Shown: one piece after another, positions 734 to 46,960 of the stretch
Layout of the letters: each line of letters opens with the position of its first letter
Position numbering within the stretch: the stretch's first letter is position 1
Assembly (NCBI GenBank): GCA_963828195.1
Contig: CAWHDT010000005.1
Span: 704,001 to 768,000 of the forward strand
DNA from: Candidatus Bathyarchaeota archaeon
GTDB taxonomy: Archaea > Thermoproteota > Bathyarchaeia > Bathyarchaeales > Bathycorpusculaceae
Length of the DNA stretch: 64,000 nucleotides
Reading direction: 5' to 3'
Notes under the pieces: model-generated
What the model saw: only the letters and a program-made list of their open reading frames with translations
The model's database searches: none
What the model was told of the DNA's origin: nothing
Program-made: the position numbers and the translations under genes

Positions 734-1654
734 ATGGCAGAAAATCAAAAGGAAAATGAGAAATCTCGAGTTACTTTAAAAAACATTAACTACCGTTCTA
801 CTAGGTTTATCTCTCTTTTGTTGTCATCACTGTACATAGTTGCCGTAGCTGTCTTCTGCATAGACTACAAAATCATTCCAGGCCCGGAATTTCTGGTTTT
901 AGGCATCCTGATTTACTGCACGTATAACGAACGGACTTGGCACGCCTTCAAAGACTGGCTGCCCTTCGTCACGGTATTTGTATCCTACGAAGTCATGTAC
1001 AGTTTCATAGGAACAATTTCCATGTATAACCTTCATGTGGGACCATACAATTTTGATGTCTTGCTGTTCGGCCAAGTGCCCAGCCTCATTCTACAGCAAA
1101 CGATAAAGATGCCTATTTTAAATTACGTTGGAGCATTTTTCTACGGCATATACTTTTTTGTACCAACCGTCTTCGCCTACATTGTCTGGAAAAAAAGCCC
1201 TAAAAACTACTGGAAATACACCGTTGGCTTCGCCATATTAACCTACAGCGCCCTCATAACTTTCCTCTTTTACCCCGTCGCGCCCCCCTGGATTGCAGTT
1301 CCAGACGTTACCCGAATCCTAACAGGGTCAGTTGACGCCAACCTCGGGCTCCCCGTTTACAAGACCCTGTTTGACTTTCTGAGCCCAAACGCCTACGCCG
1401 CATTCCCCAGCATGCACTCAGCTATGCCCTGGCTGGTGTTTCTTTTCGCATTCAAAATTTGGAGGTGGAAAGCGCTCCCAGCACTGTCGATTCCTGTTGG
1501 AACATGGTTTAGCGCAGTCTACTTGGGCGAGCACTATTTCACAGATGTCTTAGGCGGAATAGTCTACGCCACAATCGCGTTCTATGCAGCAGATAAGCTT
1601 TTGCCGTTACTTACCGCTAGAATCGGCTTTTTGAGGAAACACATGCCGACCTAA
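734..1654 (+). CDS. PAP2 superfamily / AUR1 (IPC synthase)-like membrane phosphotransferase
   Basis: Multi-TM protein with motifs YPVAPPW, AAFPSMH and YLGEHYFTD typical of the PAP2_3/AUR1 family. Confidence 0.8.
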   Translation: MAENQKENEKSRVTLKNINYRSTRFISLLLSSLYIVAVAVFCIDYKIIPGPEFLVLGILIYCTYNERTWHAFKDWLPFVTVFVSYEVMYSFIGTISMYNLHVGPYNFDVLLFGQVPSLILQQTIKMPILNYVGAFFYGIYFFVPTVFAYIVWKKSPKNYWKYTVGFAILTYSALITFLFYPVAPPWIAVPDVTRILTGSVDANLGLPVYKTLFDFLSPNAYAAFPSMHSAMPWLVFLFAFKIWRWKALPALSIPVGTWFSAVYLGEHYFTDVLGGIVYATIAFYAADKLLPLLTARIGFLRKHMPT

Positions 1655-1767
1655 AGATTCTTTGACCACAAAGGCAGGAAAGAAAGCTCCGAAAAACTGA
1701 GTTGCCTTCCCCCAACATAATACTGCAGCTTTAAAAGCTAGTATGCCTTAACAGGGGGAGCGAAGCG

Positions 1768-2046
1768 GTGTATATTTTGAGTCAAAAAGTACATGGAAGA
1801 ATAGTGAATTACAGAACAGGGCCAAAATCGCAGACATCAAGAGAATGCCTAATCGAACTGGAAACGATTGATTCTGAGTCTTCAGCGGGCAAACTCATAG
1901 GACAAAAAGTAACCTGGAAAAACGGCGACAACAAGTTTATAGGAAAAATCAGGGGTGCCCACGGAAAAAACGGCATGGTTCGGGTAAGATTCCCACACGG
2001 GGTTCCTGGCCAAGCAATAGGCGCACGGGTTGAATTAGCAAGTTAA
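1768..2046 (+). CDS. rpl35ae: 50S ribosomal protein L35Ae (start may be TTG 1777)
   Basis: GRIVNYRTG...GKIRGAHGKNGMVRVRFPHGVPGQAIG matches the L35Ae pattern. Confidence 0.9.
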   Translation: MYILSQKVHGRIVNYRTGPKSQTSRECLIELETIDSESSAGKLIGQKVTWKNGDNKFIGKIRGAHGKNGMVRVRFPHGVPGQAIGARVELAS

Positions 2047-2093
2047 CGCGCTTTGTTTTAACTAAAAAACAGTTTTTTGTGGAATAAGCTTTT

Positions 2094-2258
2094 TTACAGT
2101 TCACCTAAGTCTTCGGTTTCATACATGTGCTCTTCTAACCGAAGTTTTCCTTCTTTAACCACAACTTTGTAGTCAGCTTCGCAAATCGGGCAAGCAACAA
2201 TGTCGTCTTCTTTAACGTCAGGTAATTTGAAAGTATTTCCACATTCGCAGCATTTCAA
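2094..2258 (-). CDS. LysW/ArgW-like zinc-ribbon amino-group carrier protein
   Basis: About 54 aa from TTG 2258 (purine-rich RBS upstream). Two CxxC motifs (CCEC, CPIC) and an acidic tail EDLGEL resembling the LysW EDWGE motif. Confidence 0.7.
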   Translation of the reverse strand: MKCCECGNTFKLPDVKEDDIVACPICEADYKVVVKEGKLRLEEHMYETEDLGEL

Positions 2259-2590
2259 GATTATTTTGGTGCCCTTCCTTTTTATAGAGCAGTCTGGAGA
2301 AAAAGTAAAATTGCTAACGGCCGATCTGACTCTTCCCCTAAAGAACTCTAATTCATACATAAGAGGCGGGTAGAGCTATATTAGCATAGCTAAGAAGCAA
2401 ACCGTTTTCTATGATTCATTTTCCATTAATTGCACCGTTAAGCAAGAGGGGCTATGTTATCTTAAAAATCGTTTTCTTCATACATGGCTTTATAAGCGTG
2501 GCGGAAGAATTGTAAGCTGAAGAGTTTCTCTTATCCTCGTGGGTTTACCCTTTCGTATAATTGATTCTTTTCAAGAAAATATTGAGGTAA

Positions 2591-2731
2591 ATGAAAATGT
2601 GCATGTTGAGAGCGGGTTTAGTTAAAAACTGTCGCAGATGTAAATCTTCCGTACGGCTAACTTGTGTATCCAGAAAGAAAGCATCAAAGAAAAGCTTCAC
2701 AGATAACAAGAAAAAAGGCGAAAAAGCTTAA
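2591..2731 (+). CDS. small basic Cys-containing protein (46 aa, not in ORF track)
   Basis: GAGGT SD-like element just upstream of ATG 2591. Translation MKMCMLRAGLVKNCRRCKSSVRLTCVSRKKASKKSFTDNKKKGEKA. Confidence 0.5.
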   Translation: MKMCMLRAGLVKNCRRCKSSVRLTCVSRKKASKKSFTDNKKKGEKA

Positions 2732-2798
2732 TTGACAGTTAAAATTCCCAAAGTTCAGAAACTAATTTTTCTTAACGAAGGAGAACCGAGGTGAAAAT

Positions 2799-2993
2799 AT
2801 GTCTCAAAGAACAGTTTACGAGGTAAAATGCACTAGCTGCAACCAAACCGCCACGGTGCCCTTCAAGCCTACGCCAGGCAAGCCAGTTTACTGCAAAGCT
2901 TGCTTTGCAAAACAATCAACCAATCAATCCGCAAAAACGACGGGTCCCCACGCTAATTTTGAACCCAAACAGGCCTGGGCAAGACGAAGATAA
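2799..2993 (+). CDS. CxxC-x17-CxxC domain protein
   Basis: CTSCNQTATVPFKPTPGKPVYCKAC signature, with a GAGGTG RBS. Confidence 0.9.
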   Translation: MSQRTVYEVKCTSCNQTATVPFKPTPGKPVYCKACFAKQSTNQSAKTTGPHANFEPKQAWARRR

Positions 2994-3058
2994 ACCTAAA
3001 CAACTTCTATTTATAATCACAAGAAAACTTGCAGAGGGATAGCAACAGGGCGAATAAT

Positions 3059-3313
3059 ATGAAGATCATTAAAGGGTGGAAGAAAATAAGCAATCAAGGC
3101 GGCTATGTAAACGAAGCCACAGGTCAAACTTTAATTGTTTCCAAAAAAGAATTCAGCTCAAACTACCAGGCAGTGCTTTTTGCGGGAGAGCAAACGGATG
3201 AAGCAGAGAGCAAAAAAATCTCGCCTGAGTTCTCCAAGAAAACACAGGCTGAAGCCGTCGCCTTAAGTTGGATGGAAAAGCACCCAAATGGAATAGTTGA
3301 ATCAAAAGATTAA
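3059..3313 (+). CDS. hypothetical protein
   Basis: 84-aa ORF with normal composition, from ATG 3059. Confidence 0.6.
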   Translation: MKIIKGWKKISNQGGYVNEATGQTLIVSKKEFSSNYQAVLFAGEQTDEAESKKISPEFSKKTQAEAVALSWMEKHPNGIVESKD

Positions 3314-3436
3314 GTTAGTTCTGCCAAAGTTTAATTTTGGTTCGAGCAGTAGAGCCTAATTTTAACAAAAACATGAACTCGAAAATCTAAGTAACCTTTG
3401 CCTCAGCCATAAAGCGGCTGCCTAAAAGCGAGATAC

Positions 3437-3847
3437 TTATCGGTTTCCGTATTTTTTTCTCATGCAAACTTGGCAAAAATTTTTTTTGTAGCGCCTTATT
3501 CTTTGAGGCTGAAAAAGTTTGCCGCAAGAGCTGCATTTGATTTGCGCCGTCTGAGTAGGATCAAGCAGTTTCAATCTTCTTTCAATTTCAGCTTTGATTT
3601 CAACATCGTTTTCTGCCTTCAAAGCTCCATTCAACAATATTTTAGCTTGCTCTAAACTTCTGTTCCCATAAACCTTCAAGAAAACACTATCTGGTTTTCC
3701 CACTCCTAACTTTAACGGCAACATACAAACAAAGTTGGAGGGGTAACTCTGAGACTTGCTATAGTCAACAACTGCGAAGCGAAAGTTTCTTCGATAGGGA
3801 TTATCATCCTTCCCGTTATGCTCGAAGATCTGCAGCCGTACACTCAT
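3437..3847 (-). CDS. hypothetical protein with C-terminal zinc ribbon
   Basis: CSSC...CQVC near the C-terminus. Confidence 0.65.
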   Translation of the reverse strand: MSVRLQIFEHNGKDDNPYRRNFRFAVVDYSKSQSYPSNFVCMLPLKLGVGKPDSVFLKVYGNRSLEQAKILLNGALKAENDVEIKAEIERRLKLLDPTQTAQIKCSSCGKLFQPQRIRRYKKNFCQVCMRKKYGNR

Positions 3848-4020
3848 TTTTTAATTCACGCTTCCACATTAAAAGTAAACCAAGGTTAATATCTATACCT
3901 AAAGAAAATTTTGGTTCCTCAGCCGCCTACGCGACTTTTGAGGCTACTTAAGCCTATTTTGCCCGATAATTTGCTGTTTAACTGCGCATTAACGGTTCTT
4001 CTTGTTCGAAAAGCGGGTTT

Positions 4021-5205
4021 TCAGAGCAATGAAGATAAACCTAGGATTCCGCCTGCCACAATCATGACTGATGCTATAACGAAGGCTGCTATTTCGTATT
4101 TGTTGTATTGGTAGCCGTTCATCACTTTTTTATCTGAAACAAGCTTCCCCAGAAAGTACAGGGACGGAATAATCACTATCGGATAGATAACCATTAGGCT
4201 GAGCATCAGTTGGATGTAACCTGTTATTGTAGCTACAATGATTACGGCTGGAATGCTTTCAAGCAGGTACACTCCTATGAAAGAAGTGTGCGAGGTTTTG
4301 CCTGTGGCTTCAAGGACCCCCCATGCTGAGCCAAGGGATATAACGATGAGTGCAAGAAAGCCCGCGAAAAGGAACAGCGCGCCCATAATAGGCATGGCAT
4401 AAGGTCCAAAGAACGAAAGCACTTTTGAAAGGGCTAAGGCAGTGATCACTTTGCCGCCGTTGGCAAGCCGTATCCCCGGAAACAGCAAGATGACCATCAG
4501 AACTTCAGATACTACAGCTCCCAGGAGCGTTTCGATTCGTTCGTTCTTTAGGTCCTTTGGCTTTTTCTTTCTGCGCGCATCGGCACCAGAGTGGTAATAG
4601 AGCATCCACGGCATAATTACTGCACCTATGCTTGCTGCCAGAAGGAAGTCGAAAGATGGTTTACTGTAGGGCTGAAGCGGCGAGAGCCCCAACGAAACAA
4701 AATCTTTCAGGTTAATTGGGAAGATGAAGGCTGACGCGACTATAGCAGCCACTAACAGGAAGCTTAACGGTATAAGAATCATCTCGGCTCGGCGATATTG
4801 CTTTCCAAACATCACCGCTGTGTGGATCGAGAAAATCATTATAAGCCCCAGAATAATGGGGAAGCCAAGTAAATACAGCCCAATAGCCATCCCCGCATAT
4901 TCCGCTAAATACTCCAGAAAATCGCTTACACCCATAGGCACTGCGGCAATCATCGCTTTGCGGCTTCCGAACTGTTTTCTAGTTGCTTCGCCCAATCCAA
5001 GCCCTGCACACGTTCCTAGTCTGCCTGCTGCGTCTTGGATGATGAAGAGGGGCAGGATCAATATGAGGAGGATGAACGCCATTCTGTAGCCGTAGCTTGC
5101 GCCGGATTGTATTGCGGTGATTATTGAGGCTATGTCGATGTCGGCTATCATTACGATCCAGGCGGGTCCGAAGTTTCTTAGCCAGTCGCCGACTTTGAAA
5201 TTCAT
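4021..5205 (-). CDS. mntH: NRAMP-family divalent metal (Mn/Fe) transporter
   Basis: GPAWIVMIADID (TM1 motif), GAVIMPW (TM6 motif), about 11 TM segments. Confidence 0.85.
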   Translation of the reverse strand: MNFKVGDWLRNFGPAWIVMIADIDIASIITAIQSGASYGYRMAFILLILILPLFIIQDAAGRLGTCAGLGLGEATRKQFGSRKAMIAAVPMGVSDFLEYLAEYAGMAIGLYLLGFPIILGLIMIFSIHTAVMFGKQYRRAEMILIPLSFLLVAAIVASAFIFPINLKDFVSLGLSPLQPYSKPSFDFLLAASIGAVIMPWMLYYHSGADARRKKKPKDLKNERIETLLGAVVSEVLMVILLFPGIRLANGGKVITALALSKVLSFFGPYAMPIMGALFLFAGFLALIVISLGSAWGVLEATGKTSHTSFIGVYLLESIPAVIIVATITGYIQLMLSLMVIYPIVIIPSLYFLGKLVSDKKVMNGYQYNKYEIAAFVIASVMIVAGGILGLSSLL

Positions 5206-5245
5206 GTTGATGCCTCTTTAAAGTTGCTTGTCAAACCGCACACAC

Positions 5246-5259
5246 TTAGGTCAACCTAA
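5246..5259. promoter_or_regulatory. DtxR/MntR-type operator palindrome 1 (TTAGG-TCAA-CCTAA)
   Basis: Palindrome in the divergent mntH-regulator intergenic region, resembling DtxR-family boxes. Confidence 0.7.
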
Positions 5260-5280
5260 ATAAAGCATAATATATTAACT

Positions 5281-5296
5281 TTTAGGCAAACCTAAA
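5281..5296. promoter_or_regulatory. DtxR/MntR-type operator palindrome 2 (TTTAGG-CAAA-CCTAAA)
   Basis: Second copy of the same palindrome. The two boxes flank an AT-rich TATA-like segment (ATAATATATTAA). Confidence 0.7.
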
Positions 5297-5377
5297 TCAT
5301 TTTTTCCAACAAACACAACCCCCAAGAATTCAAAACTTATATCCCGAAATCAACAATTAAATAACTGAGACCAACCT

Positions 5378-5791
5378 ATGCCAACTTCCGAAAGCGTAGA
5401 AGAATACTTAGAAGCACTATGGATATCGGAAGAAAGAGGCGAAAAACTAGCACACCTAACATGGGTGGCAGATCACCTAAAAGTAGCAGCGCCAAGCGCA
5501 TTAGAAATGCTAAAGAAACTGGAAAAAGAAGGCTACGTAATTTATAAAACAAGACAAGGCATCGAACTTACCGAAAAAGGAAGAAAAATAGCTAAAAGAA
5601 TCATTCGCGCTCACAGACTCACAGAAGTGTTGATGAAGGAATCATTAAAAACAGACATACAGGAAGAAAGTGTCTGCGGAATAGAACATCACATGAACGA
5701 TGAATTCATGAATGCCCTGTGTACACAACTTAATCACCCGAGAAAATGTCCTCATGGACACTCCATCCCGAAAGGCAAATGCTGCCCATAA
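5378..5791 (+). CDS. DtxR/MntR-family metal-dependent transcriptional repressor
   Basis: EEYLEAL, HRLTE, CGIEHH and CPHG motifs. Lacks the SH3/FeoA domain. Confidence 0.9.
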   Translation: MPTSESVEEYLEALWISEERGEKLAHLTWVADHLKVAAPSALEMLKKLEKEGYVIYKTRQGIELTEKGRKIAKRIIRAHRLTEVLMKESLKTDIQEESVCGIEHHMNDEFMNALCTQLNHPRKCPHGHSIPKGKCCP

Positions 5792-6016
5792 ACTCAAACT
5801 AACAGAAAAATGCTACCTTACAAAATCCTTTCTTTCAATGGTGCCAACTAGTTGAATGAGATGATACTTGAGTTCACAGTCATGATTGAGCCAAGCTTGG
5901 ACGTACTCCCGAGGCAGAACGCGCATTCAAAATCGTAGCTTTCAACACTGTGCAGGTATTTTGTTCAAGTGGTGTGGGCGACTTCCATGTTTGACGATTC
6001 CAATGCTATCGCTTGC

Positions 6017-6802
6017 TTAATGCTTCATATACTTTCGGGTTAAGGTTCTTGTGAGATGAAGAGCTGCGTAGATCGAAGATAAAATCAGGAGCAAAGTGAA
6101 GAGAGTTCTTTGCGAAAAGTCAAATGAAGCCGTGAAGACGTAGAGGCCATAGAAACCCACGCATTCAAGGAATACGAATTTCAAGCTATAGCCTGAGGAA
6201 CTGGATAGAAAGAACGCGGCCGCTTTCATTTTCATTGTCCCGGCAGCCAGAGCAACGACGCTGTAGAAGTACGGTATGAAGGTGGCTATGAAAATTGAGA
6301 ATTTGCCGTGTTCCAACACCCATTTATCTGCTGCTTCGAGGTTCTTCTCAGATATATGAAAGAATGACATTACTCTCAACAGTAGTGGTCTGGCTGCAAG
6401 TGTACCGAAAACGTACTCTATCGGCAACAAAGCGCCCGCGAGGCACGCCAGAAACGCGTAATACGGATTGAACAACCCTGCTAATGATAGGTAACCACAC
6501 GCTGGAACGAGGATGTAATCGGGAACTGGTAAAAAGGCGATGCTAAGGAATATGCCTAAATAACCCGCTAGCAAAAACGGCGACGACACACCATTCTGAC
6601 CGACTTTATAGGTCGATATGTTGATGAAACGAAAATACGCGTTCAGCAATGCCAGAGCGCTCAGCAATATTATCAATATTGAAATCACAAAGAGATAGTG
6701 CCAATATTTGCTTGATCTCCCCTTTTTGTCTTCTCCGAATCCTAGATTAGTTTTCCAGATCCGACGCGAACTGCTTTTTTTCGGGGAGTTTGTTGCGCTC
6801 AT
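6017..6802 (-). CDS. DedA/VTT-family membrane protein
   Basis: LPVPDYILVPACG, KWVLEHGKFSIFIATFIP and LAAGTMKM motifs. Confidence 0.75.
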   Translation of the reverse strand: MSATNSPKKSSSRRIWKTNLGFGEDKKGRSSKYWHYLFVISILIILLSALALLNAYFRFINISTYKVGQNGVSSPFLLAGYLGIFLSIAFLPVPDYILVPACGYLSLAGLFNPYYAFLACLAGALLPIEYVFGTLAARPLLLRVMSFFHISEKNLEAADKWVLEHGKFSIFIATFIPYFYSVVALAAGTMKMKAAAFFLSSSSGYSLKFVFLECVGFYGLYVFTASFDFSQRTLFTLLLILSSIYAALHLTRTLTRKYMKH

Positions 6803-7009
6803 TTATGTTTCTTTCCGAACCTCATGGATTGCAATGCCAACTTAAAATCGTTCACTTACTTGAAATCATATTCTCTCAACTTTGCCGTTATGATGGATTG
6901 CAGTGTTTATGGTTGCTTGTTTGAGTTTATCCTTCCCCTCGCTTTTCATGCACTATTTTTGTGCGCAAAAGTTCGGGACTAATTTCAGCCATTTATTTTA
7001 GGTCAAGTT

Positions 7010-7924
7010 TTAGCTATGGAGTGCTTCCAATAAAGCTTTGACGTCATTAATCCAAGTGTTTATTGTTTTGATGTTCTCCGCCTGCCCATGTGATACCTTA
7101 TGCATTCCTTTCAATTGGTCAAGTTGGTGTTGGTAGTATCCTACTAACTGGTTTAGGGGCTTTATGAACTGGGCCGTTGAGCCATGTTGCTCCAGTTTAT
7201 CTCCTAAATTATTAAGTGTGATAAGCATCTCATCCACAGTCATTTCTGTGATTTTCTCGAAGTTTTGAAGCACCCACTGTTTGACAACCATATTGTGTTT
7301 TTTCCATCCTGTGGCTTGCTCAGTGAAGGTTTTGAGCACGGATAGGTAGAGCTGGGTGACTTGTTTCGCGTCAACTACGGGTGCCTGAGGCGCTGCTGAG
7401 GCTACTTTCACCTGTGCTTGGGTATCAGTATGCAGCTTAGCAAAAGAAACAGTTAAACCAACAGAAAGCCTAAGCGGCGCATCCAATGCAAGCCACAGTT
7501 TGTTTAGCTCCTCCAAAGAAAGCGAATCAATTTTCGTTGTGAACTCAACATTGTTTTCCTCGCCTGAATTTACGATCGGAGGAACGGCTAAAATTGCATG
7601 AATTATTTCCTCAAGCAATGCGTGGTCGTCTTTGTCGTTTCCGGTAGACGGGGTCACAAGATAGTGCAGAACAAAAGGCATCGTATTTTTGCTCGAGCAG
7701 TCTTCAGTTGACCGAGTGTTTCCTGACGCTTTTTCTTCGGTTATATTGTATAAGAAAATCGATAGCTTTCTGGTTCCGCGAGTCCCAGTGGCCTTTGGAG
7801 AGGAAAACGAGATTTGCTCTTGACTTGAGACGACGTTTTTTGTTGCGGGTTCATTTTTTATGCTGTTCCAGATAAGGTCTGCCAGAGCCCTGTCGGAATC
7901 CGATATGAAGGCTTTTTGAACCAT
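7010..7924 (-). CDS. DUF4255/Pvc16 N-terminal domain protein with an unknown helical C-terminal domain
   Basis: ISFSSP...LSIFLYNITE...LHYLVTP...DDHALL...LSLEELNKLWLALDAPLRLSVGLTVS follows the DUF4255 pattern. Confidence 0.75.
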   Translation of the reverse strand: MVQKAFISDSDRALADLIWNSIKNEPATKNVVSSQEQISFSSPKATGTRGTRKLSIFLYNITEEKASGNTRSTEDCSSKNTMPFVLHYLVTPSTGNDKDDHALLEEIIHAILAVPPIVNSGEENNVEFTTKIDSLSLEELNKLWLALDAPLRLSVGLTVSFAKLHTDTQAQVKVASAAPQAPVVDAKQVTQLYLSVLKTFTEQATGWKKHNMVVKQWVLQNFEKITEMTVDEMLITLNNLGDKLEQHGSTAQFIKPLNQLVGYYQHQLDQLKGMHKVSHGQAENIKTINTWINDVKALLEALHS

Positions 7925-38783: not shown

Positions 38784-40256
38784 TTATGACTTCACCAAGC
38801 TTATTAGCATTCCAACTCCAAGAATGTTGATGACTCTTCTCATATTGTAAGCCAGCATCGTGAATCCGACCTCTCCGTTCACCTTCCTCAGGCCTTTGAG
38901 CAACAGGTATGCCTGATTGAACGCCCTTTTCATCGTGCCGAACGGGTGCTCGACAATCTCCTTTCTCCTCTTGAGCTTGCCAGATCCCTCATCGCTCTTG
39001 AGCCTCGCCCTGAGCCTGTCGATGACATCCTGATACTCCGACCTGAAAATTATCCTGCCCTGCTTGCTCCTCGTACATCTGCTCCTGAGAGGACATGCGG
39101 CGCACGCTGCTGTCCTGTATAGCCTGCCGCGGTTCTTCCATCTGCCCTTCCAGAAGCCCATCACCTGATTGGCGGGACAGACGTATACGTCTCTGAGAGG
39201 ATCATACGCAAATCTTTGCGAGTAGAATTCAGGCGCTGGTACTCCCAACTTCTTGTTGGGCATGGTCTCTTCCGGTATGGCGACGTATGCGGTTATCCCA
39301 TTCTCCTCACATTTCTTCAGCTCACTCCCTGTACAGAATCCCTTGTCTGCCGTAACATCCAGCTTCTCCACCTCCAGAATCATCTTCGCTTTCTGAGCCA
39401 TTCCTGCGAGTTGGTACCTGTCGTTGGCGTCATTTGTGATGTCGTAATCGACCACAAGGTGGTTCTTGGAGTCTACTGCAGACTCAACATTGTAACAGAC
39501 ATCCAACTTCTGACTGTCGGTCATCATCAGTCTGCTGTCAGGGTCGGTGAGGGAGACCTCCTTCTGCCCTGTCTCCATCATCAAATTCTGAGACCGGACA
39601 TACTCCTGCTTCTTCTCTTCAAGCTCGGCGAGCTTCTCCCTTAACCTGTCGATCTTCACAGCGGCGGTACTGCTATCATCGTCCTTAACCTCCTGTTCAG
39701 CCTCGTCGTTCTCCTCCAAGTTCTTCAGGTACTGAGCTATCTTATCTTCGACGCGCTTCAACCTCTCTGGTAACGTCTTCTCGTTGAGGTTCCTCTTTGT
39801 GGAGTTCACGGCCTTGAACTTGCTCCCGTCTATGGCGACGAGCTGGGCATCGTAGAGATCTAGTGAGCGGCAGAGGTAGACGAACTCCTTGAACACGGGT
39901 TTGATGCAGCCGACGTTGTCTTTGCGGAAGTCAGCGATGGTTTTATGGTCAGGGGTGAGTTTCTTCATTAGCCACATCACTTCAACGTTTCTGTGGCATT
40001 CTCTTTCGAGTTTTCGGCTTGACCTTATCTGATTCAGGTAGCCGTAGACATACAGCTTGAGCAAGTCTGATGGGTTGTAGGGCGGTCTTCCTTCCTCGTT
40101 TGGGATGGAGTGTTTGAAGCCGAGCTTTTCCAAATTGAGGCTGTCGATGAAAGCGTCTATGAACCTGACTGGATTTTCCCTGTCAACGTAGTCATCAAGT
40201 TTGTCTGGGAAGAGTACGGTTTGGTCTCGGTGTGTTCCGTTTATGTGCTCGCTCAT
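38784..40256 (-). CDS. IS1182-family DDE transposase
   Basis: GRPPY.P..LLKLY.YGY, SSRKLE, PDHKTIADFR, AIDGSK, TDPD, ADKG and VEHPFG. Confidence 0.92.
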   Translation of the reverse strand: MSEHINGTHRDQTVLFPDKLDDYVDRENPVRFIDAFIDSLNLEKLGFKHSIPNEEGRPPYNPSDLLKLYVYGYLNQIRSSRKLERECHRNVEVMWLMKKLTPDHKTIADFRKDNVGCIKPVFKEFVYLCRSLDLYDAQLVAIDGSKFKAVNSTKRNLNEKTLPERLKRVEDKIAQYLKNLEENDEAEQEVKDDDSSTAAVKIDRLREKLAELEEKKQEYVRSQNLMMETGQKEVSLTDPDSRLMMTDSQKLDVCYNVESAVDSKNHLVVDYDITNDANDRYQLAGMAQKAKMILEVEKLDVTADKGFCTGSELKKCEENGITAYVAIPEETMPNKKLGVPAPEFYSQRFAYDPLRDVYVCPANQVMGFWKGRWKNRGRLYRTAACAACPLRSRCTRSKQGRIIFRSEYQDVIDRLRARLKSDEGSGKLKRRKEIVEHPFGTMKRAFNQAYLLLKGLRKVNGEVGFTMLAYNMRRVINILGVGMLISLVKS

Positions 40257-41961: not shown

Positions 41962-43590
41962 CTAATTGTTAGAGGTGGCAGCAATGTAGTCAGCCACGAA
42001 AATTGTGAGGTCTGCGAAGTTGATTTTGCCATCATGATTCAAGTCGCAGGCTGGGTTATACGTGCCATTCAGGTTGTATTGAACGTAGGCGGCTACAAAG
42101 TAGGTGACGTCCATGAAATTGACTGTGCCCGTATGGTAGAAGTCTATTGGGCTCGCGTTTGGGGTTGATGTTGGAACCGGAGTTGGTGAAGGCGTTGAGG
42201 ATGACGTGACGGTGGGAACGGACGTTGATATTGGAGTCGCCGTTGGTGCAGGAGTTGGGGTGGCAGGTGGCGCTACGTATGCATTGATGTAGTCTTGTCC
42301 CATAGTGTTCGGCGTGTAGCCGCTTGACAACAGCTCTTCGCCGTCGTAAGTTCCGCCTAAGCCGCTGCTGCTAAGCCAATAATAAGCCCCATCGCCGATT
42401 CCACAAGCATATTGAGCTGCGAGTAAATTACTCCACCAAGTCGCGTCATTTGCAGTGTTGCTGGACGAAGATAGGCATGAGCCTTCCTCATTAATTACCA
42501 AGGGCGCGCTGACGTCCATGCCGCTTTGTAGGCTTTGCAGTTGGGTTTCAAGCTGAGCAGTAGTCATCGGAACTCCGCCTGAACTCGAATCCTTCCCGTT
42601 CTGGTTCCAGTACGAAGTAAGATCTGAAGGCGCGTAATAGTAGAGGTGCGTTGTAAAAGCCAAATTCGTCGGGCTTCCGATCGCTGAAGATATCGCAGAT
42701 GCCCACCCAAGCGTCTGACCGACGTTTGGTTCCCAACCGCAGTTCCACTGCATAAAAATCAAGTTCGTTGAGCCTGTGCTTCTGACCGCATTGTACATTG
42801 TGGTTAGGTATGTCATGTAGCCTGAGGTTACTGTGTTGGTTGATGAACCCATAGGCTCATTCCAAGCCTCAAAGATCACGTTCGGATAAGCTTTAAGCGC
42901 GTTAGCCATCGAAGCCCAGTACGCAGTCCAAAAAGCCTGCTCATTAGCGTAGCCATTTGTGCTCTCCTCATAGCTCAGAAACGCTTGTCCTGCACTGTCC
43001 CAGTTGCCGCACATTGGTAGTCCTTGCGATCCGGCTTGGTTAGGTGTCAGGTATGGGTCTGAGCTGAACGAGCCTGAGCAGGCTGTAAGTTGGTATGGTA
43101 CAATGTTGACGTAGATGCCTGCTGCTTCAGCTTCACTGGCCAAAGTCTCAACGTAGCTCTGCACGTTTTCACCGTTCGCAGTACCATCAGCGCCATTTAG
43201 CATCCACCACTCGGGGTAAATGAAGACGCGTATCATGTTAACAGCCCAGACGCTCGATAGCTCTGTAAGCGTTTGGGTTACCGCTGTTGACGAGGCTGAC
43301 CCCCACTGGTCGCCCCAACTGTCGCCGCCTCCTGACCCCCACAGAATCAGATCCGGCGACATTCCGGCTACGCCCATGCCGCGCAGATAAACTGGGTTGT
43401 TGTTTGAGTCAAGTATCTGACCGCCTGAAGTATGCAACGGCAATGTTGCTGTTGCAGCGTAAACGTCGGATGAGCTAAAAACTGCGAACATGCTTATGGC
43501 AAAGATTGCAATGCAGCATAGTCCCACTGGCTTTGCAAGCTTCCTCAAACTAAGAGCGTGAGCTATACTCACTAAATTTTGTCCTTTCAT
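41962..43590 (-). CDS. secreted GH5-family glycoside hydrolase with PT linker and C-terminal dockerin-like domain
   Basis: LHTSGGQILD.NNNPVYLRG, NMIRV, WNEP (acid/base), HLYY and INEEG (nucleophile). Paired EF-like repeats DFYHTGTVNFMD / DLNHDGKINFAD. Confidence 0.8.
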   Translation of the reverse strand: MKGQNLVSIAHALSLRKLAKPVGLCCIAIFAISMFAVFSSSDVYAATATLPLHTSGGQILDSNNNPVYLRGMGVAGMSPDLILWGSGGGDSWGDQWGSASSTAVTQTLTELSSVWAVNMIRVFIYPEWWMLNGADGTANGENVQSYVETLASEAEAAGIYVNIVPYQLTACSGSFSSDPYLTPNQAGSQGLPMCGNWDSAGQAFLSYEESTNGYANEQAFWTAYWASMANALKAYPNVIFEAWNEPMGSSTNTVTSGYMTYLTTMYNAVRSTGSTNLIFMQWNCGWEPNVGQTLGWASAISSAIGSPTNLAFTTHLYYYAPSDLTSYWNQNGKDSSSGGVPMTTAQLETQLQSLQSGMDVSAPLVINEEGSCLSSSSNTANDATWWSNLLAAQYACGIGDGAYYWLSSSGLGGTYDGEELLSSGYTPNTMGQDYINAYVAPPATPTPAPTATPISTSVPTVTSSSTPSPTPVPTSTPNASPIDFYHTGTVNFMDVTYFVAAYVQYNLNGTYNPACDLNHDGKINFADLTIFVADYIAATSNN

Positions 43591-44772: not shown

Positions 44773-44996
44773 GTAGCCAATAGCATTCTTCAACCTGAAT
44801 AATAATCTAACGATAAAGGCAAGAAGAAAAAACCCGCCGAAACAAGAATTATCTTACTAACCTCATTTGGGGATGTATACAAGTTGTTAAGTGAACTTGA
44901 CTTGTTTGCGAAGCCCAGCATGTACGTTAAACCCAATCAAAGTTGACTTTTAAGCGAATCCCAATTGTCAAGAAGCTATAAAATCTCAGGGCTTTA

Positions 44997-46376
44997 ATGA
45001 AGATGGCAAGGAAGCGCTTGGAGGAGAAACAATTGGTTGTTGAAAAAACCCGAAACATAATCAGCTTCCAAGAATACGGCAAACAACAGGAAGCTAATGT
45101 AACAGTTCGGGAGTGGAAAAATTATAAATGGCAACTAAAAAACTCGGTAAAAACTGTTGCCGCTTTCGAAAAGGCTACAGGCATCGCATTTACAGAAAAA
45201 GAACATGAAGAACTCGAAAAAACAATCCTCAAATTCCCCCTAAGCATAACACCCTATTATGCGTCGTTAATTAAGAAAGAAAATTACGTCAATGACCCCA
45301 TATTTAAGCAGTCGTTTCCTAACCCAGCTGAACTAAAAATTTCAAAATACGACATGAAAGACCCACTACATGAAGACAAGGACAGCCCCACTAAAGGAAT
45401 TACTCACCGATACCCCGACAGAGTCCTTTTTCTAGTCAGCAACCAATGCGCAATGTACTGTAGACACTGCACAAGAAAAAGAAAAGTCGGCGATCCAGAA
45501 CATATTCCGTCAAAGCAACAGATAATCCGGGGAATCCGCTACATAGAAAACCACCGCGAAATACGTGATGTGCTGCTTTCGGGAGGAGACCCCTTTATGC
45601 TGCCTGACGATTTTCTGGATTGGATTCTAACGGAGCTAAACAGCATTCCACATATTGAGGTGGTACGAATTGGCTCAAGAATTCCAGTTGTTCTCCCCTA
45701 CAGAATAACGGATGAGCTGGTGCAGATGTTAAAGAAACATCATCCATTGTGGTTAAATACCCAGTTTAACCACCCAAGAGAATTCACATTATCTTCCAGA
45801 GAAGCCCTCAGAAAACTAGCAGATGCAGGAATCCCCCTGGGGAATCAAACTGTACTGTTAGCAGGCGTCAACGACTGCCCAAAAATAATGAAAAAACTCA
45901 ATCAAGAACTTGTACAAAACAGAGTAAGGCCATATTATCTGTTTCAATGTGACCTCTCAGAAGGGCTCACGCATTTTCGAACACCTATCGGAAAAGGCAT
46001 CGAAATCATGGAAAGCCTCGTAGGCCACACAAGCGGGTTTGCCGTCCCCAAATACGTTATAGATGCGCCTGGGGGAGGAGGAAAAATTCCTGTTATGCCA
46101 AACTACATTGTCTCATGGTCCACAAATAAAGTGGTCTTAAGAAACTACGAAGGCGTCATAACCACCTACAAAGAACCCGACGACTACAAATCCATTCAGT
46201 GCCAAAGAAACTGCGGCAAATGCGGTTTACCTCCAAAACTAACTGAAGACGAGCAGAACGCCGTGGGCGTGGAAAAACTGTTAGCGGACACCGATGAAAT
46301 ATCGCTTGTGCCAAACGGAAACCTGCGGATGAAACGAAGAGAAAAAGCAAGCGTAGGAGGTGTTTTGAATACTTAA
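44997..46376 (+). CDS. ablA: lysine 2,3-aminomutase
   Basis: [32 protein letters not shown] (PLP Lys) and C-terminal CQRNCGKC. Confidence 0.9.
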
Positions 46377-46389
46377 AATTAAAAATTAC

Positions 46390-46899
46390 TTGAAATTCAA
46401 AATCAGAAGCGTACTGCTCAAAGACGTAAAAGAAGTGTATAAACTGCTTTTGGCAAACAGACCATACGTCGGGTTAAATTCCAGGTACACCTACTTTCTT
46501 TTAGCAAAAGATTTTTCCGATACCTGTGTCGTTGCAGAACAAAATAACAAAATAATCGCGTTTTCCTCAGGGTACCTTCCTCCCGACAGACCAGAAACTT
46601 TCTTCAACTGGGAAATCGCCGTTGACAAAGAATATCGGGGATACAGCTTACAGAAACAAATGCTTCTTCATCAAATCCGAATAACAGACGCAAAATATTT
46701 TGAGTGCACAGTGAACCCGTCAAATGAAGCGTCAAGAAGAAACTGCTGTCAACTAGCTCAAATGCTAAACACCAAATGCGAAGAATACCTGCTTTTCAGC
46801 GAAGCAGATTTCGAAAATGATGGCCACGAACCAGAAATTCTCTACCGAATCGGACCAATTGCCAAAAGTGAAGTAAAAAATTTAGCTACCATACAATAG
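46390..46899 (+). CDS. EctA-like GNAT acetyltransferase
   Basis: LNSRYTYFLLAKDFSDTCVVAE, GYLPPDRPETFFNWEIAV, ECTVNPSNEAS and HEPEILYRIGP all follow the EctA pattern. Confidence 0.75.
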   Translation: MKFKIRSVLLKDVKEVYKLLLANRPYVGLNSRYTYFLLAKDFSDTCVVAEQNNKIIAFSSGYLPPDRPETFFNWEIAVDKEYRGYSLQKQMLLHQIRITDAKYFECTVNPSNEASRRNCCQLAQMLNTKCEEYLLFSEADFENDGHEPEILYRIGPIAKSEVKNLATIQ

Positions 46900-46911
46900 A
46901 CAACAATGTTG

Positions 46912-46960
46912 AAGCAACCTCACCTTTTTTTAATCAAAAAAAGAAAAGTGAAGGTTGCTT
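46912..46960 (+). terminator. stem-loop with T/A tracts after ablA-ectA-like pair
   Basis: AAGCAACCT-CAC...GTG-A-AGGTTGCTT inverted repeat with an internal T7/A7 pair. Confidence 0.5.

Follow-up and report, generated by a model that had tools for sequence, protein, structure and literature searches.

EctA, the diaminobutyrate acetyltransferase of the ectoine pathway, acetylates the distal amino group of diaminobutyrate. According to the accessible portion of a review of ectoine synthesis (PMC5924519), pathways unrelated to ectoine also contain close paralogues of EctA, and EctC alone is diagnostic of ectoine synthesis; that portion makes no mention of an aminomutase. A second described system is the pathway formed by a lysine 2,3-aminomutase and an acetyltransferase, which is encoded by ablA-ablB in methanogens and by kamA-yodP in Bacillus (PMC9128505, in its accessible sections). 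Here we describe a locus that joins the first gene of the second system to a relative of EctA. It lies in a stretch of 64,000 nucleotides from a Candidatus Bathyarchaeota archaeon (contig CAWHDT010000005.1, positions 704,001 to 768,000), and this whole stretch is referred to below as the window. The two genes are:

44997..46376, + strand: ablA, 459 amino acids (aa), identified by family matches and active-site residues
46390..46899, + strand: EctA-family GNAT acetyltransferase of the ablA-linked clade, proposed beta-lysine N-acetyltransferase, 169 aa, TTG start

A preliminary description made from the letters of the window had placed a 169-aa GNAT 13 bp 3′ of ablA, and both open reading frames and the gap between them are as it gave them. 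The two genes would form a two-gene operon in which AblA converts L-lysine to beta-lysine and the GNAT, a putative EctA descendant retargeted to this substrate, acetylates beta-lysine with acetyl-CoA. If the enzyme acts as EctA does, it should yield N-epsilon-acetyl-beta-lysine, which is the compatible solute made by AblA and AblB in methanogens, and in Bathyarchaeia it would take the place of AblB as a non-orthologous replacement.

A lysine 2,3-aminomutase gene and its EctA-family partner

Judged by its sequence, the ablA product is a bona fide lysine 2,3-aminomutase. It belongs to AblA with 742.2 bits on the TIGR03820 lys_2_3_AblA model (equivalog cut-off, 525.4 bits), it matches the Pfam families LAM_C and Radical_SAM, and its radical SAM CxxxCxxC motif reads CAMYCRHC. 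The protein aligned to the solved Clostridium lysine 2,3-aminomutase 2a5h with an E-value of 4e-143. In this alignment D319 (the D of QCD) falls on 2a5h chain residue 293, and D356 and K363 (the D and K of IDAPGGGGK) fall on residues 330 and 337. From the literature on 2a5h we take two Asp residues to hold the epsilon-amine of lysine and a Lys to be the pyridoxal phosphate lysine; the positions of D319 and D356 agree with the statement in the preliminary description that the lysine-binding Asp residues are kept. The best 120 matches of an AblA homologue search were all Bathyarchaeia-type proteins, and this search is uninformative on the origin of ablA.

By model score and predicted fold the GNAT is a member of the EctA family. 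It passed the TIGR02406 EctA model narrowly, with 130.4 bits against a cut-off of 120.6, and gave no match to the AblB model TIGR03827 at E <= 0.01. Its best solved relatives are the EctA structures 3d3s (E 3.5e-23) and 6sk1. The AlphaFold2 model of the GNAT (predicted local distance difference test score, pLDDT, 94.4) matched the solved EctA structures with template modelling (TM) scores of 0.85-0.90, and EctA chains filled the top 10 Foldseek hits, their E-values seven orders of magnitude better than that of the next GNAT. The protein had been called EctA-like and not AblB at the outset, and this assignment stands, since there is no TIGR03827 match and both the closest structures and the closest sequences are EctA. 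A search of 1.84 billion representative proteins returned 1,090 matches at E <= 0.001, four of them at E <= 1e-30. The close relatives carry the source names Candidatus Bathyarchaeia or Bathyarchaeota archaea; beyond this tight archaeal clade identity falls to 40-47%, the level of the general EctA family, and the nearest named relative is a Handelsmanbacteria 'diaminobutyrate acetyltransferase', the name that the source records also give to the proteins of the clade. A quick maximum likelihood tree of 81 rows was built, in which 65 of 127 full-length representatives were used (the 25 best plus a random draw of 40). In this tree the ablA-linked GNATs form a single clade (SH-aLRT 99) whose stem measures 1.65 changes per column, and this clade is placed within an EctA radiation of unresolved backbone, apart from the archaeal EctAs that are linked to ectBCD.

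The absence of ablB, ectB and ectC, first remarked for the window, extends to the whole genome, an assembly of 2.83 Mb in 9 contigs that is 96% complete. Neither AblB (TIGR03827) nor EctC (PF06339) gave a match in it, and its best EctB match (TIGR02407) reached 227 bits against a cut-off of 552 and is no true EctB. The GNAT is accordingly found outside the partnership with ectB and ectC that marks EctA. In an even sample of the class Bathyarchaeia (251 genomes) AblB was over its cut-off in none, and EctC was not found in five other genomes that bear the pair. The EctC result is meaningful because the same search found strong matches elsewhere in the phylum, namely four of 190 bits or more in 301 genomes, all four of them inside ectA-ectB-ectC-ectD clusters.

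The pairing itself is strongly conserved. We scanned one genome per species with a narrower alignment, a 26-sequence alignment being too diverse as a query, and obtained 73 loci, 72 of them Bathyarchaeia-type and one from a bacterial metagenome-assembled genome (MAG). Two of the 72 are labelled Acidoferrum and Methanocella, which are probable binning errors. In 70 of the 72 archaeal loci the gene immediately 5′ of the GNAT, in the same orientation, was ablA; two of these 70 are cut by contig ends (L018 and L061), eight have split ablA matches (L028, L047, L052, L056, L068, L082, L088 and L090) and four have split GNAT matches (L037, L085, L088 and L090). The same order was seen in 11 of 12 loci from relatives. 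Among the 251 sampled genomes AblA was over its cut-off in nine, an EctA-family protein was over its cut-off in the same nine, and the two genes were adjacent in every case. The GNAT was present in 15 of 41 close relatives, with AblA over its cut-off in 12 of the 15; two of the 15 have an ablA that is split or cut by a contig end, and one 56%-complete genome has the GNAT only. No genome among the 41 carries an AblA-clade gene without the GNAT. The preliminary description had pointed to synteny as a check on its proposal, and with 70 of 72 loci and the same nine of 251 genomes the pairing is not chance.

Genomes of the same genus that lack the pair were also compared. In four of five, a PP-loop gene and a family-2 glycosyltransferase (GT2) gene are direct neighbours at the empty site, and because these flanking genes adjoin there, ablA and the GNAT gene behave as one insertion/deletion unit. 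The same two genes are the commonest further neighbours of the pair (GT2 in 45 and PP-loop in 39 of the 73 loci). The fifth genome has a gene for a 290-aa multi-pass membrane protein at this position (L104 2613-3485), and the site appears to be variable.

Several other arrangements were recorded in the same scans. Two copies of ablA-GNAT lie on different contigs in each of two MAGs (L023/L024 and L072/L075), and double copies were also seen in genome G004; these may be duplications or co-assembled strains. A GNAT of the clade stands alone at L063 (5980-6660) and L066 (about 3622-4302), where it has a C-terminal extension of about 57 aa. A second KamA-family group is found in other Bathyarchaeia, in about 24 of the 251 genomes; its open frames span about 360-425 aa, its scores against the AblA model are about 470-517 bits and it has no EctA-like partner (for example G034:C8:42461-43492 and G066:C8:25286-26353).

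Residues that set the ablA-linked clade apart

To define the clade by residue, 120 of its members were compared with 135 EctA-family proteins, in the numbering of the window protein and with representatives limited to lengths of 150-260 aa. The proteins P0127, P0128, P0129 and P0131 were kept out of the EctA set; P0127 was scored as a row of its own, and the other three seem to be either fragmentary or related to the archaeal clade. The positions that differ are:

Position 24: EctA family, gap in 99%; ablA-linked clade, one-residue insertion (Arg 97%)
Position 27: EctA family, Leu 99%; ablA-linked clade, Val 100%
Position 28: EctA family, Asp 87%, Glu 12%; ablA-linked clade, Gly 100%
Position 75: EctA family, Gln 100%; ablA-linked clade, Glu 100%
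Position 88: EctA family, Ala/Gly 98%; ablA-linked clade, Gln 99%
Position 118: EctA family, Leu 72%; ablA-linked clade, Asn 97%

N30, Y33, Y35, F72, W74, N112, H146 and E149 are invariant in both groups. The combination of Asp or Glu at position 28 with Gln75, by which EctA can be told from its residues, is absent from the clade, and Asp28 with Gln75 is kept in all six ectB/ectC-linked EctAs examined and in both solved EctAs. In GNATs the alpha1-alpha2 loop and strand beta4 line the acceptor pocket. In the model of the window protein that loop contains residue 28, and residue 75 is on the strand, just before the loop that binds coenzyme A (CoA). The pocket may have been re-shaped for a longer substrate with a beta-amino group, because one carboxylate is lost, another is gained and several side chains are smaller; that positions 28 and 75 would contact the substrate is what we infer from the topology of the fold. 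The CoA loop, RGYSLQ, had been described as atypical, and this holds against the general GNAT loop but not within the clade, where the sequence is normal: Ser86 occurs in 33 of the 120 members and Gln88 in 119. The window GNAT departs from the clade-conserved columns at two positions only, which fits a functional gene.

The insertion together with Val27, Gly28 and Glu75 recurs in only one other protein among the 150 best representatives, P0127. This protein shares 40% identity with the window GNAT and comes from a MAG labelled Pseudobdellovibrionaceae. Its gene is located directly 3′ of a gene for a 515-aa KamA-family radical SAM protein (241 bits on TIGR00238, cut-off 199) and is followed by a MarR regulator gene; EctC was not found in this genome, and scanning metagenomes with P0127 as query brought up no relatives. 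As an independent case of the same pairing P0127 is weak. The bacterial locus L089 has, at 1609-7021 and on one strand, three genes for MrpORP/MinD-like Fe-S ATPases and a small MrpORP C-terminal-like gene, and this run is followed on the same strand by a KamA-like gene, an EctA-like GNAT gene and a MarR gene.

The residues allow a bolder proposal, which we put forward tentatively and regard as rather unlikely, and as more doubtful than the pathway itself. The changes Asp28 to Gly and Gln75 to Glu would constitute a specificity switch from alpha,gamma-diaminobutyrate to KamA-type beta-amino acids, present at least in Bathyarchaeia and in one bacterial lineage, and the archaeal product would be either the first compatible solute of Bathyarchaeia or an undescribed acetylated beta-amino acid.

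Proposed function and alternative readings

Taken together, these comparisons make it probable, if well short of certain, that AblB has given way to a beta-lysine acetyltransferase of EctA descent, which makes the compatible solute N-acetyl-beta-lysine. The substrate, the acetylated position and the osmoprotective role are extrapolated from sequence comparison and from analogy with known enzymes. The preliminary description had offered two possibilities, the replacement of AblB by an EctA-family enzyme or a route to a different acetylated beta-amino compound, and the comparative evidence supports its proposal and would fit either of the two. None of the three findings that it named as speaking against that proposal turned up: the GNAT falls outside AblB, the genome carries no ectB or ectC at another place, and the pairing is conserved.

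A number of points weigh against a dedicated beta-lysine acetyltransferase. The case for the clade as a whole is a comparative one, and the backbone of the tree leaves its origin within EctA unplaced. The GNAT is still over the curated EctA cut-off and may be active on diaminobutyrate. The window gene lacks the ancestral ATG, so that its translation must begin at TTG or at ATA, and the split ablA and GNAT matches in several MAGs may be broken genes or assembly errors. In addition, L063 and L066, which have near-identical proteins, keep an intact GNAT with the signature residues and have no adjacent ablA, and ablA was not found anywhere in these two genomes at E <= 1e-30; in this lineage the GNAT may have a use without AblA. 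The bacterial relative adds little weight, since in the tree P0127 has a very long branch and falls apart from the archaeal clade, its KamA-like partner reaches 271 bits on the AblA model and is below the cut-off, and a search through 151 genomes of its order returned no second protein of this kind, the other matches being ordinary ectA-ectB-ectC clusters. Many carriers come from peat and soil, habitats in which cells might plausibly, though not obviously, need an osmolyte.

The alternative that survives best keeps the link to AblA and changes the product. The GNAT would act on beta-lysine to make another compound, for example N-beta-acetyl-beta-lysine or a diacetylated form. All the evidence that couples ablA to the GNAT applies to this reading equally, and the enzyme is unrelated to AblB; with two EctA-invariant positions changed and a carboxylate moved from 28 to 75, the choice of amino group made by AblB need not recur. 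We nevertheless consider it unlikely, because the distal-amine geometry of EctA, transferred in the simplest way to beta-lysine, gives the N-epsilon product, and the pair has no additional tailoring genes as conserved neighbours.

A second alternative holds that the GNAT is an ordinary acetyltransferase of diaminobutyrate or another small amine with no functional link to AblA, and that adjacency reflects common descent or co-transfer. The score over the EctA cut-off, the L063/L066 lineage and the existence of close EctA paralogues in unrelated pathways (PMC5924519, accessible portion) would fit such an enzyme. However, the genome has no EctB or EctC to supply or use diaminobutyrate, presence and absence are matched in nine of nine cases among the 251 genomes, in relatives the stop codon of ablA and the GNAT start codon overlap, the pair comes and goes as an insertion/deletion unit, and residues invariant in EctA are replaced. 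On these grounds we judge it very unlikely.

The streptothricin acetyltransferases are an example of GNATs that confer resistance by acetylating beta-lysine moieties. A role of the pair in catabolism or detoxification, in which it would neutralise or channel beta-lysine from lysine breakdown or inactivate an external beta-lysine-containing compound, would suit the description of Bathyarchaeia as protein and amino-acid fermenters (PMC10477458, accessible portion) but is highly improbable, since the lysine-fermentation genes for beta-lysine 5,6-aminomutase (KamD, PF09043) and the 3-keto-5-aminohexanoate cleavage enzyme (BKACE, PF05853) were not found in the genome, in searches of which only the second had a positive control, since a detoxifying enzyme would need no aminomutase of its own, and since the gene architecture mirrors ablA-ablB.

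Bathyarchaeia are among the most abundant archaea of anoxic sediments, peat and soil, and the papers covered by our literature search state nothing on their compatible solutes. That search of article texts found no report of Bathyarchaeia with ablA, acetyl-beta-lysine or an EctA-like partner. In the accessible portions of the Bathyarchaeum tardum paper (PMC10477458) and of a Bathy-6 genome paper, 'osmo-', aminomutase and compatible solute are never mentioned, and the supplementary gene tables of these papers might list the genes. If the synthesis of acetyl-beta-lysine is confirmed, part of the Bathyarchaeia makes this solute with a second enzyme recruited from the ectoine pathway, which would be a clean case of non-orthologous displacement. 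The widespread label 'diaminobutyrate acetyltransferase', which implies a partial ectoine pathway that is absent here, would be corrected, and the two fixed residue changes would provide a simple hypothesis for a change of substrate in an EctA-type pocket. The ablA-GNAT pair is present in a named record of the cultivated Bathyarchaeum tardum (L053), which grows at 0-60 g/l NaCl according to the accessible portion of its description (PMC10477458), and this makes a direct test practical.

Operon layout and comparison with known systems

The 13-bp gap between the two genes is a peculiarity of the genome that contains the window. In six of six aligned relatives the ATG of the GNAT gene overlaps the stop codon of ablA by 8 nt (ATGCTTAA); the window has ATA at this site, and the first standard start of its GNAT is the TTG seven codons further 3′. 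At the other end, translation of ablA probably begins at the ATG at 45003, since the start-codon alignment shows that relatives do not share the ATG at 44997. The further features of the locus are:

44897..44912, + strand: distal copy of the 16-nt motif TTGACTT-N4-GCGAA, exact copy, possible regulator site
44943..44958, + strand: proximal copy of TTGACTT-N4-GCGAA, exact copy, about 55 nt before the ablA start
44977..44983, + strand: TATA-like box TATAAAA, about 23 nt before the ATG at 45003
46369..46371, + strand: ATA at the site of the ancestral GNAT ATG, with ATG there in 6/6 aligned relatives
46912..46960, + strand: hairpin with a T7 run (46925-46931), -21.4 kcal/mol, z -3.3

The two motif copies in the window are 46 bp apart, and the whole genome holds four exact copies, of which the other two are inside open reading frames. 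Both copies, at about -100 and -55, were present in 9 of 68 loci from relatives, and at least one copy within two substitutions was present in 21 of the 68, mostly at -50 to -62; the pattern was not seen in more distant loci. The motif is partly palindromic, its variants TTCGC...GCGAA and TTCAC...GTGAA are palindromic, and the block is conserved in the upstream alignment. This paired motif upstream of ablA may be the operator of a dedicated regulator. The sequence AGCTATA is invariant in five aligned loci upstream of ablA, and the spacing of the TATA-like box would fit a leaderless archaeal transcript.

Downstream of the GNAT gene, the terminator-like hairpin of the preliminary description was recovered by folding, with the energy, z-score and T7 run listed above; one of 200 shuffles folds as well, and the hairpin is likely the end of the two-gene transcript. 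A simple terminator scan did not flag it, its loop being too long for the rule, and a sigma-70/terminator scan is uninformative for an archaeon. Rfam gave nothing meaningful around the operon, with one snoRNA-like match at E 0.68. No RNA runs were among the sequencing runs listed; the matches were soil and bog DNA runs with partial shares, which have no bearing on expression or habitat.

The neighbours of the pair are unrelated to it. Upstream, on the opposite strand, lies a gene for a PP-loop ATPase with an NFACT-R domain, and downstream lie a GT2 gene and then a gene for a DNA alkylation repair protein. Further upstream, a 490-aa DDE transposase (DDE_Tnp_1_6, DUF772) is encoded at 38784-40256 on the - strand, about 5 kb from the pair, and a 542-aa protein with a GH5 cellulase domain and no NCBIfam match is encoded at 41962-43590 on the - strand.

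Compared with the described systems, the locus resembles ablA-ablB in being a two-gene unit in which a TIGR03820-clade lysine 2,3-aminomutase is followed by a GNAT, and the same chemistry would be expected of it; as with AblB, the acetyltransferase gene adjoins ablA. Unlike AblB, the GNAT is without a TIGR03827 match, has 169 aa against the 266 positions of that model and belongs to the EctA family. It has the fold of the solved EctAs of Paenibacillus lautus (6sk1, 6sll and 6sjy) and Bordetella parapertussis (3d3s), is 31-35% identical to them, and has N30, Y33, Y35, W74, H146, E147 and E149 in common with EctA. It differs from EctA in having no ectB or ectC neighbours, in Gly28 and Glu75, in the extra residue at position 24, in a three-residue deletion after helix alpha3 and in Gln at the Ala/Gly88 position of the CoA loop. 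The EctAs of the archaeal ectABCD clusters in the same phylum (L100-L103) are likewise of the EctA family, with 167-170 aa, but they precede ectB, ectC and ectD, keep Asp28 and Gln75 and form a separate clade. The two-enzyme AblA pathway is thus already known, and its combination with a second enzyme of the EctA family is a new variant.

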